Source of the DNA: Blastocatellia bacterium | Lineage (GTDB): Bacteria; Acidobacteriota; Blastocatellia; UBA7656 | DNA length: 64,000 bases | Direction of reading: 5' to 3' | Assembly (NCBI GenBank): GCA_963765495.1 | Contig: CAVXWP010000004.1 | Span: forward strand, 160,001 to 224,000 | Part shown: positions 1 through 7,189 of the stretch, piece after piece | How the letters are laid out: each line of letters starts with the position of its first letter | Position numbering within the stretch: position 1 is the first letter of the stretch | Position numbers and translations under genes: made by a program | The notes under the pieces: generated by a model | Seen by the model: the letters and a program-made list of their open reading frames with translations, nothing else | Databases searched by the model: none | Told to the model about the DNA's origin: nothing

Positions 1-1693
1 TGCGGGCATAGCTGGAAATCCTTATAAGAATCTCCTGCCTGAAGGTGTTCTTGGCGTTTTCGCTTATGCCGATCTGCTCTTCGATTGAACGCATGAGTTT
101 CTCGTCAGGTTCAAGCTCTTCTTCGGTGATCGGGTCTTTCAGCTTCTCCTTGTTGCAATAGGCTTCGACATTATCGAGATAATTGTCGCAAATGCCTTTG
201 GCCATCTCTTCAAATGAATAGACGAATGCGCGCTGGACCTCGTTTTTGGCGATGTCGTCGTATTCGCGCCGTGCCACCGAAACAAGATTCAGATAATGCT
301 CTCGCTGCTCGCCCGATATTCCGGTGTGCTGCTCGAAGCCGTCCTTGATCGCCCTCAGAGCGTCAATCGGATTGATGCAGAGGATGTTGTCGCGCACGAG
401 CGCGCTCGAAAGCCGGTTGATGACATAGCGAGGGCTGATGCCGTCCATCCCTTCGCGCTGCGCCTCTTCCTGAAGCTCGCGCACATCCTTCGACTTGAAG
501 CCTTCCACATCTTCGCCGTCATAAAGCTTCATCTTCTTGACTATGTCGATGCTCGCTCGTTTAGGCTCTTCAAGCCTCGTCATCACCGCAAACATCGCGG
601 CGACTTTCAGTGTGTTCGGCGCGATGTGCACGTTGCGCAGAGCTTCGGATTGCTTGAGCAGTTTGTCATAGATGCGTTCCTCCTGAGAGACCTTCAGGTT
701 GTAAGGAACCTTTATCATGATTATGCGGTCCTGTAGAGCTTCGCTCTTGCGATTGGCCACAAACGACGAGTATTCGTTCTCGTTTGTGTGCGACAGTATC
801 GCTTCATCCGCATAGATCATGGCGAAACGCCCGGTCTTGATATTCTGCTCCTGGCTGAGGGTCAGCAGGCTGTAGAGGAATTTTTCATCCACCTTCAACA
901 TCTCGACAAATTCCATCAACCCGCGATTGGCGATGTTCAATTCGCCGTCGAAGCGATAGGCGCGAGGGTCGGATTCGACCCCGACTTCGCCGATTGTCGA
1001 AAGATCTATCGAGCCGGTGAGTTCGGTGATGTCCTGGCTCTTTGGATCAGACGGGGCAAAGGTCCCGATCCCTATACGGTCTTTTTCGGAGAATACTATG
1101 CGATGGACCAGCACATCTTCGTGGCGTCCGCGATAGACATGCTCAAGGTTATAGCGGCACTGCGGGCAAAGCTCGCCCTCGATATACATTCCGTAATGGC
1201 GCGCGATCTCGGGGCGCAATTCGGGCGGGATCAAATGAAGCGGTTCTTCGTGCATGGGGCAGTCTTTTATAGAGTAGACCGCTCCGTCATCGGTTCTGGA
1301 CCACTTCTCAAAGCCGCGCTTGAGCATCGTGACTATGGTGGATTTGCCGCCGCCTACAGGCCCCATCAAAAGCAGGATTCGTTTGCGAACTTCGAGCCGC
1401 TGCCCGGCGGACTTGAAGTATTCGACTATCTTTGAGATCGGCCCCTCGATCCCGAATAATTCGTTGCTGAAGAAATTATATTTGGTGATCTCGTCGCGCG
1501 ATCCTTCGTTAATCTTCTCGACACCGGCATCCAGTACCATGTCACAGATGCGGGCGTGCGAAAGTTTTGATACGTTTGGATTTTGAAGGACTAGTTCGAA
1601 ATAATCCCTGAATGTTCCCTCCCAGGCCAATCGCTCGCGGTCGCGGCGATGTGACTCCAGAAGGTCGCTTATATTAAATTTGCTTTCTTCCAT
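1..1693 (-). CDS. prkA: PrkA/YeaG family serine protein kinase (AAA+), 3' end runs off the window
   Basis: Hand translation from ATG 1693: MEESKFNISDLLESHRRDRERLAWEGTFRDYF..., Walker A ILLLMGPVGGGKST; SD GGAGGT upstream. Missing from the ORF track because it has no stop in the window. Confidence 0.92.
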   Translation of the reverse strand, partial: MEESKFNISDLLESHRRDRERLAWEGTFRDYFELVLQNPNVSKLSHARICDMVLDAGVEKINEGSRDEITKYNFFSNELFGIEGPISKIVEYFKSAGQRLEVRKRILLLMGPVGGGKSTIVTMLKRGFEKWSRTDDGAVYSIKDCPMHEEPLHLIPPELRPEIARHYGMYIEGELCPQCRYNLEHVYRGRHEDVLVHRIVFSEKDRIGIGTFAPSDPKSQDITELTGSIDLSTIGEVGVESDPRAYRFDGELNIANRGLMEFVEMLKVDEKFLYSLLTLSQEQNIKTGRFAMIYADEAILSHTNENEYSSFVANRKSEALQDRIIMIKVPYNLKVSQEERIYDKLLKQSEALRNVHIAPNTLKVAAMFAVMTRLEEPKRASIDIVKKMKLYDGEDVEGFKSKDVRELQEEAQREGMDGISPRYVINRLSSALVRDNILCINPIDALRAIKDGFEQHTGISGEQREHYLNLVSVARREYDDIAKNEVQRAFVYSFEEMAKGICDNYLDNVEAYCNKEKLKDPITEEELEPDEKLMRSIEEQIGISENAKNTFRQEILIRISSYAR

Positions 1694-1704
1694 CTGGTAC
1701 CTCC

Positions 1705-1945
1705 GAATCCCACATGGGAAGATCGAGAACAGACACTTTCCTGCTGCGTCTGAAAGCGCCGACCATAAAGGCCGGCAGAGCATCACCCGTGGGCCAGTTT
1801 TGAAGCCCCTCCCTGAGCGGGAGACAAACGGCTTCGCCACTATAAACTGCGAGAGTTAGGACGACACTCAGTCTACGCCCTTTCGGACTCACAGTCGGAG
1901 GTCCGGGTCCGGCTGCTCATGGCTCGACTGGATGCACGCTCAACC
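1705..1945 (-). ncRNA. Candidate structured RNA in the prkA 5' leader
   Basis: Many nested stems on the minus strand, including a long-range closing stem (1930-1941 with 1778-1788), a GAAA tetraloop hairpin (1877-1888) and further hairpins. No family recognised. Confidence 0.55.
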
Positions 1946-2023
1946 TCTTGTTTCTGAAGCGAAGCATCTTGTCAAACTAGCTCAAGCTCAATCATCAATT
2001 GTTATGGCTTCCAACTGCTATGC

Positions 2024-2032
2024 ATTATAGCA
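2024..2032 (-). promoter_or_regulatory. Extended -10 promoter for the prkA leader
   Basis: Minus strand TGCTATAAT (TGn-TATAAT), about 330 nt upstream of the prkA ATG. Confidence 0.55.
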
Positions 2033-2084
2033 CAGCATTGCAAGCACCCGGGCGTGAAGTCAAAACCCCAAGTGATTTAAGCAT

Positions 2085-3014
2085 TTAGGGGTCTATATCA
2101 AGCACCACTTTCGGCCTCACCACCCTCATCTCCTCATCATAAAGGCCAAGCCCAACCAGTGCGCCCCGCTCATCACACAGGCGTATGGATTGCCCCCAAT
2201 CACCGGGCGCGTCTGTCAAAGACAACTCGATAGCGCGGCCTGTGACCACTCTCTTCAACTCTTCCCCGTCAAGCTCTACGCGGGGCAGATGGGTGAGCAT
2301 ATCAGCCGGGCTGATCAGGCTATCCTGTATCGTCCGGTCGCGGCCACGGGTCTCGACTTCTTCCAGAGTCAATGCCCGCGCCAGATCGAAATGGCCCACT
2401 GCCGTGCGACGGAGAGCGCATAGATGAGCGCCTGCGCCGAGCCTTTCGCCGATGTCGTTGGCAAGCGTACGGATATAAGTACCCGAAGAGCAACGAACCC
2501 GCATCACAAAATCTTTTGTTCCATCCGGGTTCAACCTGAGCGGCTCGGCGGATTCGGCCATCTCAATCGAGTAGATGTTTATCTCAATCATCTGTCGTTC
2601 GACTTCCCGGCCTTCGCGGGCCGCCCGATACAGCCTCTCGCCAGCGACTTTCTTGGCCGAATACATCGGCGGCAGTTGCAAGCTCCGGCCTGAAAATTCG
2701 CTCAAGACCCCGCGCACCTCTTCTTCGCTCAAGTTGTTCGATGATGCGAGAGGCGTGATCTGTTTGCCGGTCAGGTCCTGCGTGTCGGTGGCAAACCCTA
2801 GCCTGACGGTTGCGGTGTACTGTTTGTCGAGACCTGCAAGAAATTGAACGAGCCGGGTGGCGCGTCCCAGACAGACGACGAGCACACCTGTCGCAAAGGG
2901 GTCGAGCGTGCCCGCATGACCTACGCGCCGTGTGCCGCAAGCCTTCCGCACTCGCGCCACAGCGGTGTGTGAGGTAATGCCTTCCGGCTTATCAACTGTT
3001 AAAGCGCCTAGCAT
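2085..3014 (-). CDS. truB: tRNA pseudouridine(55) synthase
   Basis: DKPEGITSH, VGHAGTLDPFATG, PPMYSAKKVAG and CSSGTYIR motifs; start trimmed to MLGALTVDK. Confidence 0.96.
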   Translation of the reverse strand: MLGALTVDKPEGITSHTAVARVRKACGTRRVGHAGTLDPFATGVLVVCLGRATRLVQFLAGLDKQYTATVRLGFATDTQDLTGKQITPLASSNNLSEEEVRGVLSEFSGRSLQLPPMYSAKKVAGERLYRAAREGREVERQMIEINIYSIEMAESAEPLRLNPDGTKDFVMRVRCSSGTYIRTLANDIGERLGAGAHLCALRRTAVGHFDLARALTLEEVETRGRDRTIQDSLISPADMLTHLPRVELDGEELKRVVTGRAIELSLTDAPGDWGQSIRLCDERGALVGLGLYDEEMRVVRPKVVLDIDP

Positions 3015-3138
3015 GACGGGATTTGAGATTTGAGATCCGAAATCTGAGATTCTCCGACTCAGATCAGGTCTGGTTTCCATTTGAATAGTTGGGACAGACG
3101 GTCCATTTGACTATATGTCGAGCCAGACACATTTGCGG

Positions 3139-5262
3139 TTACTGGCTCTCTAACTTCTCTTTTAATCCTGTGAGCGACCCGTTGAGCTTTTTATAAAGCG
3201 ATTCGATTTGCGCCCGGCGCACCGACTCGGTCGGAGAACCGGGTTCAAAGCTGGCTATATAAAAATCGAGTGCGCGTTTCTCATCGCCCACCTGTTCGGT
3301 GGCTACGGCCAGATGCCAGAGTGCCGTTTTTCGCTCCAGATTATCGGGGTAGACCTGAACCGCTTTTGCCAGAGTTTCGAGCGCCGCTCGCGTATCGCCC
3401 TTCTTGAAGAGTATCCACCCCAGCGCATCATATGCCCGGCCAAGAAATACATCCCGGCGGCCTTGACGATCAAGCAGAGGCGCGTCGCGCATAGACCCGT
3501 CAGGCTCGGTAGCCGAATCGGCCATCTCTATGGCTCTTCTTGAAAGCTGTTCGGCGGCATCGAGCGCGACCTCAAGTTCGGTGAGCTTGCGCGCAGCGAC
3601 TATCATGCGAAATGCCTGACGACCATCATCGAGAGTTGTGAAGGTCTTGACCGCCTTGATCAAATCGGCAGCGCCGGGCAGACTCGAATCCGCCCCGGCC
3701 GACAGTTCGTTTGAATTAATCGGGGGGCTGGCCCGTCGCGGGCGAGTGGCGTTTTTGAGCGAATCATCCGCCTGCTTTCCTCCTCCTCTAGCCCCCCTGC
3801 GCCCCGTGGAAGCGGCAGGTTTGCGCGCTTTAGCCATTACATTTGCGTAATGATCCATACGCGCCAGCGCCTCGGCCAGCCGATACTGCATAGTAGTTGT
3901 CGGATAATCGTTTGAGAAAAGCGCCGCCTTGCGCTCGCGTTCAAGCAGCAAATCCAAACTGGGCGACCTCGCCTTCACCACTCCGCCAAGCAAGGTCTCG
4001 AACTCGCCTTCATCAGAGATTGTGAAATTCTGCTTTATCACATCGAGAGCCTGATCATAACCGTCAAGCGTCATCAAGGCTTTTACAAGCTCGAACTTGA
4101 GAGTCGCAAAACCCGCGAGCGTCTGTGCCTGAATGATCGTTGCAAGCGCATCGCCGTATTTGCCTTCGACCGCGTCAATGTTGGCTTTGGCGATAAAAGT
4201 CCACGCATAGCGAGGCTCTATGTGAGCGGCGCGCTCCATATAGGGGCGGGCGACGAGCGGCTTTCTCCGATTCGTGTAAAAGAAGGCAAGCTGCGTCATC
4301 AGGCGATAATCTTCCGGCGCAAGCTCGGCTGCGCGCTTGATCTCCGCATCGGCCTCTTCGTTGCGGCCAAGAGCAAGCAGCGACAAGGCCAGCCCGCCGT
4401 GCGCCTCCGCATCATCCGGTTTGAGCGCTATCTGTTTATTGTAATAGGTGATTGCCCGCTTGTGATCGCCCCCGGCGCGAGCCAGATTGGCAAGGTTCAG
4501 ATTGGCGAATTCGTCAGCCGGGTCTATTTCAAGCGCCCGCTCGAATTCCGACATCGCCTCTTCCAGTCGCAGGTTTATCAGATAAGCGCTGCCCAGCCCG
4601 TTGTGGGCCCGGTGATTATCGGGAGCGATTGCCACGGCATGCTCCAGCACGCGGACTGCTTCAATGGGGGCTTCGATCTGGACGTAGAAGAAACCAATCT
4701 GCACCAGCCGATTCGGGTCTCGTTCGAACCGGCTCTCAAAGGATTGCATCAGTTCTACGGATTCGACTCGATAACCGAACGCGCTCATCGCAAGCGGCAG
4801 GGGGAAGATAAATTGTCCGAAGACACGGTCGTTGATTTCGGCAGGCGCGTTGTTGAATACGGCCTTGAAATCGCGCATGGCCGGTTGCGGGTTGCCTTCT
4901 CTCAAATGCTGCTCGCCCCTGAGCGCATATTCCCTCATCAGCAGGTCGCGCGCCTGTTTTTCAAGCCCCGCGTCTCGATGAGCGGCGACAAATCTTTCGA
5001 GCAGTTTTATGCGTTCATCCTGCGTGGCAGCCGAACGGGCGCGCTCAAATGCTTCGCCGGGCGATTCCGAAGCAGCTTCGCTCGAAGCCGGGGCGGGCCT
5101 GTTTGGTGCTTTTCCGCCTTTTCTGCCTTTTTGAACCATCGAACCTGCCGACATCCCGTCAATCGAAATCGCCAGAACCAGCAGGGCCGGAAGCAGACAC
5201 CTACGCGACAGAAGCATAAAGCTTCCGGCAGTATTAATACATAATCCCTTGATCGTGTTCAT
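3139..5262 (-). CDS. Exported tetratricopeptide repeat protein
   Basis: 707-aa ORF with a hydrophobic N-terminus and several TPR units (AHNGLGSAY...ALEIDP; AYDALGWILFKKG). Confidence 0.85.
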   Translation of the reverse strand: MNTIKGLCINTAGSFMLLSRRCLLPALLVLAISIDGMSAGSMVQKGRKGGKAPNRPAPASSEAASESPGEAFERARSAATQDERIKLLERFVAAHRDAGLEKQARDLLMREYALRGEQHLREGNPQPAMRDFKAVFNNAPAEINDRVFGQFIFPLPLAMSAFGYRVESVELMQSFESRFERDPNRLVQIGFFYVQIEAPIEAVRVLEHAVAIAPDNHRAHNGLGSAYLINLRLEEAMSEFERALEIDPADEFANLNLANLARAGGDHKRAITYYNKQIALKPDDAEAHGGLALSLLALGRNEEADAEIKRAAELAPEDYRLMTQLAFFYTNRRKPLVARPYMERAAHIEPRYAWTFIAKANIDAVEGKYGDALATIIQAQTLAGFATLKFELVKALMTLDGYDQALDVIKQNFTISDEGEFETLLGGVVKARSPSLDLLLERERKAALFSNDYPTTTMQYRLAEALARMDHYANVMAKARKPAASTGRRGARGGGKQADDSLKNATRPRRASPPINSNELSAGADSSLPGAADLIKAVKTFTTLDDGRQAFRMIVAARKLTELEVALDAAEQLSRRAIEMADSATEPDGSMRDAPLLDRQGRRDVFLGRAYDALGWILFKKGDTRAALETLAKAVQVYPDNLERKTALWHLAVATEQVGDEKRALDFYIASFEPGSPTESVRRAQIESLYKKLNGSLTGLKEKLESQ

Positions 5263-5339
5263 AAGAATGCAAATACTATAGCGGTTTTTGCTGGAATCTG
5301 CTACACGGAAGAGTAACCAGAGAAGCGTGTGGCGATGGC

Positions 5340-5442
5340 TGATGCGTGATGCGTGATGCGTGACTTTGAGGAAGCCTGTTTGTTAATGACAGATTGCAAA
5401 TCAAGTAAATCACGCATCACGCATCACGCATCACGCATCACG
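5340..5442. repeat. Inverted heptamer tandem array (TGATGCG)n...(CGCATCA)n
   Basis: Two opposed tandem arms around an A/T-richer spacer, immediately after the phosphatase stop codon. Confidence 0.9.
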
Positions 5443-5446
5443 AGCC

Positions 5447-7189
5447 CTACCGCCTGCCCGGAGCCGGGCGCTCCGGGCCCATCGCTTCGTTAAGCACGCG
5501 GCCGACTCGATTCGAGGGAGGCTCGATGCCGAGCAATGCCGCAATCGTAGGCGCAATGTCGGAGGGGGAGCATTCGCCGTAGTAGCGACCCGCGCGCATG
5601 CCAGGCCCGCTGATGATTACCGGGACGTGTGTGTCATAGTTGTAAGGCGAGCCGTGCGTGGTCGCTATATCTCCTTCAACGAAAAACATGAAGGGTCTGG
5701 TTACAATCCAGACGTCCCCTGACCGCTCTCGATTGAACCCGTTCATCACACGGCGAGCAATGGGAGTCCTTGGAACGCGGCCTTCAACCAGTTCGGTTCG
5801 AGTGAAGTAATTGACGATGCCGGGAACTTTTAGCGCCGCTTGCCCCGCTATGCGCTCGGCCTCCGCGGGATCGACTTTGCGTTTTTCCATCATCTCAGGG
5901 TCGAGATACAGTTGATCGTTGACAAATGCCTGTACCCACTTCTCTCCCCCGAAACGGGCTGCCAGAGCCTTATTCACGGCATCAATCAATTGCTCGGGCG
6001 AGATTCGCCCCGCATCAAAGCCGAGAGATTCGGCGCGCTCGGGCACCGGAGAGACACCATGATCTCCCGTCAGGAATACTATCGTGTTACCCTGACCTGC
6101 ACGCCGGTCGATATAGGTCAAAAGATCGGCGATTACGCGATCAAGCTGAATATATGTATCCATCACTTCAAGGCTGTCCGGCCCTTTGGTGTGGCCTACA
6201 AGATCGGGAGTCGAAAAACTCACGGACAATAAATCCGGGTATTGATCCGCGCCGAGAGATTCGGCTTCGACGGCAGCCTTTGCGAAATCCGCCAGATACT
6301 CGGAGGCGAAAGGCGTGAATTGAAAAGCGCCATAGAATTTCGGGCCGGGTTTGTCGGCTCCGCCGTTTATCGTGTAAGGAAACTTCTCGTCCGACGACGC
6401 TTTCGCATCAGACCTGCTGGCTGCCCCTGCCTCCTCGTAGGCTTCGGGTTTGAGCGCAAGGTTCCACTTCGCGCCAAAGTATTTATCAGGGCGATGCGAT
6501 TTATTGAACGCACCGACCCACGGGGGAAGCGCCTTGAAATAGTAATCGCTCGACATCATCGTGCCTGTCGAGGCATCAAACCAGTATGCGCCGTTGGGCC
6601 GTTGCCCGCCGGGAAACACGGCCGAGCGGTCTTTCAAAGAGAGAGTCACGACTTTTGATCGGAGGTTTGTGGCAAGCCGCATCTGATCGCCTATGGTAGT
6701 GCCTATGAGCGCGCGCGGGCTCGGAGCGCCTCCCCTCTCCGCCGGGCCGTGATCGGTAACCGCGTGCGCCTTATCGTCAGAGACTATCATTCGCGTCTTG
6801 CCCGTTTCACGGTCAAAGTACATGTTGCCGACGATGCCGTTTTCAGCCGGAATCGAACCTGTAAAGATTGCCGCGTGTCCCGGAGCCGTATATGTAGGCA
6901 CGTAATCATATTTTGCGTCGGTAAAGAAAGCACCTTCGCGCATAAGGCGGCGGAACCCGCCTTCGCCAAATGCCCCCGCGAAGCGTTCGAGGAAATCGTA
7001 TCGGAACTGGTCTACGATAATAGCCAGCACAAGACGAGGGCTCGCGTTGTTTCGATTCGCTCCGCGTCGAGGTGATGTCTGTTGCCTCTGAGCCGTCCCG
7101 GTCGCGGGAGAGAGAGAAGCAAACAAACAGGTGAGCAGAATTATCGCGCGCGTTTTTCCATATTTCTTTTGATTCATAATAGATTCCAC
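5447..7189 (-). CDS. Alkaline phosphatase superfamily protein (PafA-like nucleotide pyrophosphatase/phosphodiesterase)
   Basis: VDQFRYD, TYTAPGHA (Thr nucleophile), KDRSA, DLVGH, GDHG and THGSPYNYDTHVP motifs; signal peptide. Confidence 0.92.
   Translation of the reverse strand: MESIMNQKKYGKTRAIILLTCLFASLSPATGTAQRQQTSPRRGANRNNASPRLVLAIIVDQFRYDFLERFAGAFGEGGFRRLMREGAFFTDAKYDYVPTYTAPGHAAIFTGSIPAENGIVGNMYFDRETGKTRMIVSDDKAHAVTDHGPAERGGAPSPRALIGTTIGDQMRLATNLRSKVVTLSLKDRSAVFPGGQRPNGAYWFDASTGTMMSSDYYFKALPPWVGAFNKSHRPDKYFGAKWNLALKPEAYEEAGAASRSDAKASSDEKFPYTINGGADKPGPKFYGAFQFTPFASEYLADFAKAAVEAESLGADQYPDLLSVSFSTPDLVGHTKGPDSLEVMDTYIQLDRVIADLLTYIDRRAGQGNTIVFLTGDHGVSPVPERAESLGFDAGRISPEQLIDAVNKALAARFGGEKWVQAFVNDQLYLDPEMMEKRKVDPAEAERIAGQAALKVPGIVNYFTRTELVEGRVPRTPIARRVMNGFNRERSGDVWIVTRPFMFFVEGDIATTHGSPYNYDTHVPVIISGPGMRAGRYYGECSPSDIAPTIAALLGIEPPSNRVGRVLNEAMGPERPAPGRR

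Follow-up and report, generated by a model that had tools for sequence, protein, structure and literature searches.

How the bacteria of this lineage control their PrkA operon is the question raised by the DNA that precedes it. PrkA, YeaH and SpoVR are encoded by a gene trio that is kept together in very many bacteria and is tied to starvation and stress, as yeaGH in E. coli and as prkA in Bacillus sporulation; the signal that the module answers is, to our knowledge, not known. In the window (the whole 64-kb stretch of DNA analysed here, part of a 7.3-Mb genome), truB ends at 2085 on the minus strand and the ATG of prkA follows at 1693, leaving a spacer of 391 nt. Pfam confirms TruB on the far side of this spacer, finds AAA_PrkA (7e-128) and the C-terminal PrkA domain (2e-96) in the prkA product, and recognizes a YeaH-type DUF444 (1e-110) and then SpoVR (3e-145) in the next genes of the operon. 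As judged from sequence comparison among relatives, a conserved structured RNA element in the leader of prkA is real, and we consider below how it is built and what it could do. The gene and its promoter region comprise the following features.

2..1693, minus strand: prkA, first gene of the prkA–DUF444(yeaH)–spoVR operon, which runs off the window (641 aa).
1691..1706, minus strand: ribosome-binding site UCGGAGGU (1706–1699) and prkA start codon (1693–1691), in near-invariant alignment columns.
1694..2017, minus strand: inferred prkA 5' leader of about 324 nt, its start placed from the position of the -10.
2024..2032, minus strand: extended -10 TGCTATAAT, with the pattern TGnTA(T/C)A(A/C)T.
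2040..2045, minus strand: box GCTTGC, 4–7 nt upstream of the extended -10, in (near-)invariant alignment columns.

PrkA tblastn alignments begin at the ATG at 1693, behind the Shine–Dalgarno (SD) sequence GGAGG at 1704–1700, so that an N-terminal extension of prkA from the GTG at 1840 was rejected; the columns of the ribosome-binding site and start codon are near-invariant even in leaders that lack the conserved core described below. At the other end, the extended -10 pattern lies upstream of prkA in 91/91 loci holding the prkA start (46 unique leaders), and a simple sigma-70 scan, which requires a -35 element, gave no promoter match. Farther upstream, the CTTGC of the box is present in 45 of the 46 unique leaders, the exception (L053) reading TATTGC. 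The gap between box and -10 is 7 nt in the window, and the combination of box and -10 pattern with a gap of 4–6 nt has one other match in the window's own genome (controls, 0–2). Because GCTTGC, at 4–7 nt from the -10, stands too close to serve as a -35, it may instead be bound by a regulator; a sigma-54 reading of GCTTGCA was discarded, with no TGGCAC seen by eye at the proper distance. Judging by the position of the -10, transcription of prkA would start near 2017. An intrinsic terminator was found nowhere within the leader on the minus strand, where the sole terminator-like site (1626–1607) falls within the coding region of prkA, and a transcription attenuator of that kind was rejected for a leader that holds no GC-rich hairpin followed by a U run.

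Conservation is concentrated in the promoter-proximal half of this leader, in which two features stand out.

1847..1998, minus strand: conserved leader core of 152 nt, delimited by blastn identity and covariance model R1.
1847..1868, minus strand: conserved 3' tail of the core, AGUGUCGUCCUAACUCUCGCAG, in near-invariant columns.

Identity of the core to the window averages 0.80, compared with 0.43 at four-fold sites of the adjacent prkA, and is the higher of the two in 37/37 comparisons, which argues that the core is under strong selection; TruB protein identity is only 53–65% in the same loci. A blastn search with the spacer gave matches in 15 of 24 other genomes of the family, at 73–87% identity across genera over 1998–1828, and in 0 of 16 genomes outside it. 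Of the 53 genomes sampled from this Blastocatellia family, all of them metagenome bins, model R1 finds the core in 38 (15 of 20 genera), in one copy per genome except for two in G054; 116 genomes from nine further families of the class gave no match, and a second model, R2, returned none from five sister-family genomes and none from 150 other genomes of the phylum. The match lay upstream of prkA in 16/16 first loci, with truB on its other side in 15, and all matches with examined flanks are found upstream of prkA, between the extended -10 and the gene; one family match out of 39 (L025) sits on a contig that stops short of prkA. The core is conserved, restricted to one family in single copy and fixed in position. 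What relatives have kept agrees with the original prediction in that the prkA leader carries, downstream of an extended -10 and on the strand of the gene, an RNA element that is conserved and apparently new; a few of its pairs covary.

The bin with two copies, G054, holds differing leaders (L046 on C146 and L050 on C255), each next to a prkA start that is 91–93% identical to that of the window. Contamination of this bin is given as 4%, and two strains may have been binned together there rather than a leader duplicated. An exact core motif occurs in 33 public records, of which 26 are titled as Blastocatellia (Acidobacteriota) bins; the other titles are Candidatus Onstottus arcticum, one "Acidobacteriota bacterium" and five with other labels. 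Those five (L068, L072, L075, L090 and L094) are titled Verrucomicrobiota or uncultured Clostridia, and at least three of them appear to come from genomes placed in the Blastocatellia family, so that the titles look like mislabels.

Fifteen genomes of the family are negative with R1. Nine of the ten that were searched have prkA, at 84–93% identity, and the eight R1-negative leaders that were read are shorter or different, with the promoter kept in 8/8 and the SD context in 7/8 (L055 has GACGGAGGU). The leaders of genus g20 are recognizably diverged copies of the core. One leader that scored as core-less (L057, from G016, a relative of G017 in genus g17) carries, some 200 nt ahead of prkA, AUCGAGGCUACGAGUGCAACAGUUGA, by eye close to one strand of the conserved hairpin (the 3' strand of P1, below) together with CAGUCGA; the presence of the core in the family may go back further than the model matches suggest. 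In the sister families (L099–L102; f2 and f3) the truB–prkA order is kept with GTGCTATACT 200–330 nt upstream, and the leader sequences are unrelated. We take this to mean that a long prkA leader is general in the class and that the core studied here is one family's version of it. By eye, UGACGCG seems common to the sister-family leaders and to the 3' half of some leaders of the family.

No known RNA family accounts for the core. Rfam 15 at gathering score gave no match in the whole 64-kb window, nor did a search of positions 1–6000 at E up to 10; on the 411 nt from 1680 to 2090 the same permissive search returned STnc310 (17.1 bits against a cut-off of 40) and Ms_AS-4 (15.1 bits against 50) alone, with chance-level E values of 1.1 and 6.3. 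In line with the original prediction, the element has no match to 6S, SRP, tmRNA, RNase P or a known riboswitch, and the loose resemblance to the raiA motif that it had mentioned finds no Rfam match on the 411-nt stretch, even at E up to 10. A published RNA element upstream of prkA or yeaG was not found in the literature covered, which did not extend to supplementary motif lists. A small open reading frame in the core was also rejected, since the ATG in GCCAUGAGC is ACG, AGG or CCG in relatives and the indels are not multiples of three.

A rival reading takes the core for a separate small RNA of about 150–200 nt, transcribed from the conserved promoter and ending, or being cut, before prkA. 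Such a product would suit a strong, invariant promoter, a conserved part that stops about 150 nt before the ATG and a 3' half of the leader that is much less conserved. However, the minus strand has no terminator-like site between core and prkA, no U run follows the last hairpin (P5, below) in the window, inspection short of a systematic search showed no further conserved promoter close to the ATG, and the element has never been found away from prkA among the matches with examined flanks. We consider a free-standing small RNA unlikely, and return to an element that is probably part of the prkA message.

The fold of this element was derived from a MAFFT alignment of the 38 unique core-bearing leaders (A2), in which helices were tested singly, and model R2 was then built with the supported structure, giving a model-fitted alignment of 39 sequences. 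The supported fold begins with hairpin P1, continues with a three-way junction that P2 closes and has more variable hairpins downstream.

1931..1968, minus strand: hairpin P1, GAUGC (1968–1964) with GCAUC (1935–1931) and CGCUU (1961–1957) with GAGCG (1941–1937), closed by a variable apical loop.
1869..1930, minus strand: three-way junction closed by P2, CAGUC (1930–1926) with the second GACUG (1873–1869).
1891..1916, minus strand: P3, GCAG (1916–1913) and CGGA (1911–1908) with UCCG (1899–1896) and CUGU (1894–1891), around a variable loop.
1876..1889, minus strand: P4, an optional GNRA hairpin, GUCC-GAAA-GGGC in the window.
1802..1835, minus strand: P5, a variable hairpin, GAAGCC(GU).../...GGCUUC, with the inner stem CUCCC/GGGAG in the window.
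1708..1776, minus strand: three lineage-variable hairpins of the 3' half (1776–1758, 1752–1730 and 1719–1708), the first two of them in the window's minimum-free-energy (MFE) fold.

P1 is paired in 96.3% of alignment cells, shows double changes in two pairs and is present in the window's MFE; L015 has a 13-nt insertion in its loop, and in L049 and L064 both GAUGC/GCAUC strands are jointly shortened. P2 is paired in 99.5% of cells, with an A-U pair replaced by C-G in L058 and by G-U in three leaders, and has a pair probability of 0.01 in the window itself. Double changes occur in three of the eight pairs of P3, whose loop in L010 carries a 17-nt insertion that reads as able to form a hairpin of its own; in a reading made partly by eye, the centroid fold of L056 has an 8-bp helix GCCGCCGG/CCGGCGGU at P3. 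Single-sequence MFE folds of L058 and L061 contain both P2 and P3. The GNRA hairpin P4, named as such in the original prediction and upheld, is found in 33/38 leaders and cleanly absent from five, is paired in 94.5% of cells without double changes, and has a GNRA loop in 22/33 (GCAA in nine, GAAA in six, GCGA in six, GAGA in one). P5, the GAAGCC/GGCUUC helix that had likewise been proposed, has double changes in five of its eight pairs and 80.6% of cells paired in a poorly aligned region; RNAalifold recovers ten P5 pairs in one genus. Beyond P5 the 3' half of the leader aligns poorly between genera, and in genus g14 the prediction there is only a small hairpin before the SD. The three hairpins that had been drawn in this half have their strings in place, and two of them (1776–1758 and 1752–1730) belong to the window's MFE, whereas the sequence of the third (1719–1708) pairs otherwise.

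For the helices considered together, pairing holds in 96.8% of the cells of the model-fitted 39-sequence alignment, compared with 26–39% when partners are slid, and in 91.1% of those of the plain MAFFT alignment, where seven pairs show double changes, five of them in P5. The figures from the first alignment are biased in favour of the structure, since it was fitted to the model and its sequences share ancestry. In the 39-sequence alignment, double changes affect six pairs (11 cells) against 1.3 (1.4) in shuffles, a level reached by 0/500 shuffles and with slid controls at 0–3, a control that overstates significance because the sequences are related. Compensatory changes in P1, P2, P3 and P5 are few, and this thin covariation is contributed by a small number of lineages; covariation in the prkA leaders of relatives, which had been named as a check on the idea, is present to this extent. 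With model R2 the score of L058, one of the diverged leaders of g20, rose from 13.2 to 18.9 bits (E 0.005) with its compensated pairs aligned, and these leaders retain P2 and P3 in other letters. Parts of the core are conserved outside this structure: no candidate pairing partner that we tried for the 3' tail was consistently kept, and of several stack-scan candidates for the 5' motif GAUCNUUGA none was consistent. An outer P1 helix, UUUGAC/GUCGAG, was rejected at 85.7% paired, its 5' strand varying freely in g14, and could at most be part of the masked state discussed below.

Folding stability alone is not above chance; conservation exceeds it. The leader from 1690 to 2020 (331 nt) has an MFE of -122.5 kcal/mol (z = -1.70; 7/100 shuffles as good) and its opposite strand a z of -1.14, and the core alone has a z of -0.42, with 67/200 shuffles as good, so that an exceptional folding energy finds no support. 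This unremarkable stability, like the odd conserved GCTTGC box in the promoter region, would fit conservation that acts on DNA, for example on transcription-factor operators downstream of the promoter, rather than on an RNA fold. The details of the variation speak against such operators: 152 nt is long for them, indels fall at hairpin tips, a whole hairpin is cleanly lost in 5/38 leaders, double changes exceed the controls, and pairing is kept through G-U on one strand only, with 80 G-U cells against 11 A-C cells. The strand test fits an RNA read from the prkA strand, and we regard selection on DNA as very unlikely.

The original prediction had drawn a different architecture, in which a long-range closing helix of GAGCGUGCAUCC (1941–1930) with GGGUGAUGCUC (1788–1778) encloses the helices AGUCG/CGACU, UGUGAG/CUCGCA and CAGUUU/AAACUG. 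Its quoted strings are where it put them, including GUCC-GAAA-GGGC (1888–1877), GAAGCC (1835–1830) with GGCUUC (1807–1802), the SD, the ATG and the extended -10 at 2032–2024. In the window the closing helix is worth -15.0 kcal/mol, with 4/100 shuffles as good, and ACUGUGAG/CUCGCAGU is part of the MFE. Among relatives, however, the closing helix beats 95/100 shuffles in only 3/38 leaders and is weaker than P1 in 31/38. AGUCG/CGACU is 99% paired because both of its sides hardly vary; it has no double changes, its pair probability averages 0.03, and the covarying P3 takes up its 3' strand, CGACUGU covarying with GCAGCCGG instead. UGUGAG/CUCGCA, GUUU/AAAC and CUCCC/GGGAG are jointly paired in 57.7% of cells, which 213/500 shuffles equal; the A-U pair of the first occurs in 2/33 leaders, and the CUCGCA and CAGUUU helices share two bases, so that both cannot form as written. 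We judge this nested architecture highly improbable and proceed with P1 and the P2-closed junction.

What the junction might do is suggested by a second pairing that is open to the 3' strand of P3.

1895..1902, minus strand: anti-SD ACCUCCGA, overlapping the P3 3' strand and exactly complementary to UCGGAGGU at 1706–1699.

The anti-SD lies about 190 nt upstream of the ribosome-binding site. In partition-function folds the anti-SD:SD helix has a probability above 0.8 in 21/38 leaders and a low one in every leader with high values for P3 and P2. UCCG belongs both to P3 and to the anti-SD:SD helix, and the predicted probabilities of the two are inversely related. When folds are constrained, the masked state is the MFE in 20/38 leaders, and the junction state is on average 7.1 kcal/mol less stable, being the more stable of the two in only two leaders. 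The mean probability that the SD is unpaired is 0.147, compared with 0.284 when the upstream part is shuffled, with the lower value in 27/38 leaders, and in 19/38 none of eight shuffles is as low; in the eight core-less leaders there is no difference (0.343 against 0.340 in shuffles). The anti-SD is damaged in about 8/38 leaders (L013, L015, L034, L035, L040, L046, L061 and L063), where the SD is predicted to be more open.

We propose that the extended -10 about 324 nt upstream of the start codon transcribes a structured leader of prkA–yeaH–spoVR, whose core would fold as P1 and then as a three-way junction with P2 closing and P3 and the optional P4 inside. The 3' strand of P3 could alternatively pair with the ribosome-binding site through ACCUCCGA/UCGGAGGU, the two pairings being mutually exclusive. 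A folded junction would leave the ribosome-binding site free and allow prkA to be translated; an opened one would mask it. The junction is made first in transcription, and a stabilizer (a small ligand, a protein or temperature) would turn the operon on. We infer the switch, its direction and any trigger from predicted folds, and give a probability of roughly 50% to the reading of the leader as a cis-acting translational switch of prkA–yeaH–spoVR, which we favour on the grounds of the predicted SD masking, the exclusivity of P3 and anti-SD pairing and a leader without a terminator.

The anti-SD pairing also has features that fit less well with a switch. In the 7-bp anti-SD:SD helix 96.2% of cells are paired; its changes are one-sided and wobble-compatible throughout, none is double, and shuffles do equally well. 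Any CCUCC matches any SD, and the most conserved letters of the anti-SD segment are those of the P3 strand, not ACC. For the window's own leader the predictions give a different local fold, with an open SD (0.74) and with P2, P3 and P4 at probabilities of 0.00–0.01. We also weigh an account in which the leader is structured without being a self-contained switch, the core serving for protein or small-RNA docking, stability or processing, and SD masking being incidental. The absence of covariation in the anti-SD helix and the open SD of the window would agree with it, as would the long invariant runs even where the core is drawn unpaired (GAGCC and the 22-nt tail). In the P1 loop, moreover, GAGGUU (1947–1942; AUCGAGGUU in most leaders) looks like an SD and resembles the true context of the ribosome-binding site, AUCGGAGGU, an arrangement that may be analogous to leaders mimicking the other target of a protein. 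Two observations run the other way: with one element per genome no shared regulon site is seen, and SD masking beats shuffles in the 27 leaders mentioned above. A docking or processing element is in our view possible, if rather doubtful. A pairing of the GAGGU of the SD look-alike with ACCUC was considered separately and dropped on account of fourth-base changes that, by eye, are uncompensated in seven leaders.

Within the translational-switch reading, the three-way junction could be the aptamer of a new riboswitch class that senses a starvation or stress metabolite and turns on translation of PrkA–YeaH–SpoVR, a proposal that we advance tentatively and think doubtful. If it were true, the ligand would name the input signal of the module; more generally, any ligand or protein bound by the RNA would offer a direct handle on the PrkA–YeaH–SpoVR signal. 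With a dedicated and strongly selected RNA in front of it, the operon would be under control after transcription start in at least one lineage. The element would contribute an RNA family from a phylum, the Acidobacteria, in which regulatory RNAs have been poorly sampled; its reach is limited to a single family of soil Acidobacteria, for which metagenome bins are almost the sole source.

Structured leaders in which an alternative pairing masks the SD are well known as a kind of system; the sequence and fold of the prkA core match no curated family. The closest likeness is to the adenine (add) riboswitch of Vibrio vulnificus, a translational ON switch with a three-way-junction aptamer: in both, a cis element in the 5' leader makes a three-helix junction first, one strand of which can alternatively mask the ribosome-binding site, with no terminator, features that are predicted in the present case. 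In contrast to add, the prkA element has no Rfam match, is confined to one Blastocatellia family and has variable hairpins between its anti-SD and the SD, which lie about 190 nt apart. RNA thermometers such as ROSE and fourU mask the SD in a short local hairpin with little sequence conservation. The prkA leader resembles them in that the ribosome-binding site can pair with a CU-rich stretch of its own leader, but its masking strand lies within a near-invariant 152-nt core. The raiA motif, from Firmicutes and Actinobacteria, is likewise a large conserved structured RNA near stress-related genes, whereas the prkA element is seen only in Blastocatellia and has no Rfam match to raiA. The nadA motif or NAD+-I riboswitch, found in Acidobacteria species, is also a leader RNA linked to one downstream gene (PMC6859854). 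It consists of two tandem bulged stem-loops upstream of nadA, in contrast to the hairpin and three-way junction found here, which bear no Rfam likeness to it.

One prkA gene behind a core-less leader departs from the others. In L055 (2308–3654; G009, contig C42) prkA carries an in-frame insertion of 449 aa after about residue 268, giving a frame of 1105 aa. Pfam finds LAGLIDADG_3 in the insertion (1.8e-22) and a sub-threshold match to Intein_splicing (30.9 bits, cut-off 35.8), on the strength of which we read the insertion as a probable intein that includes a homing endonuclease. The same residue is where prkA of G020 breaks between two contigs.
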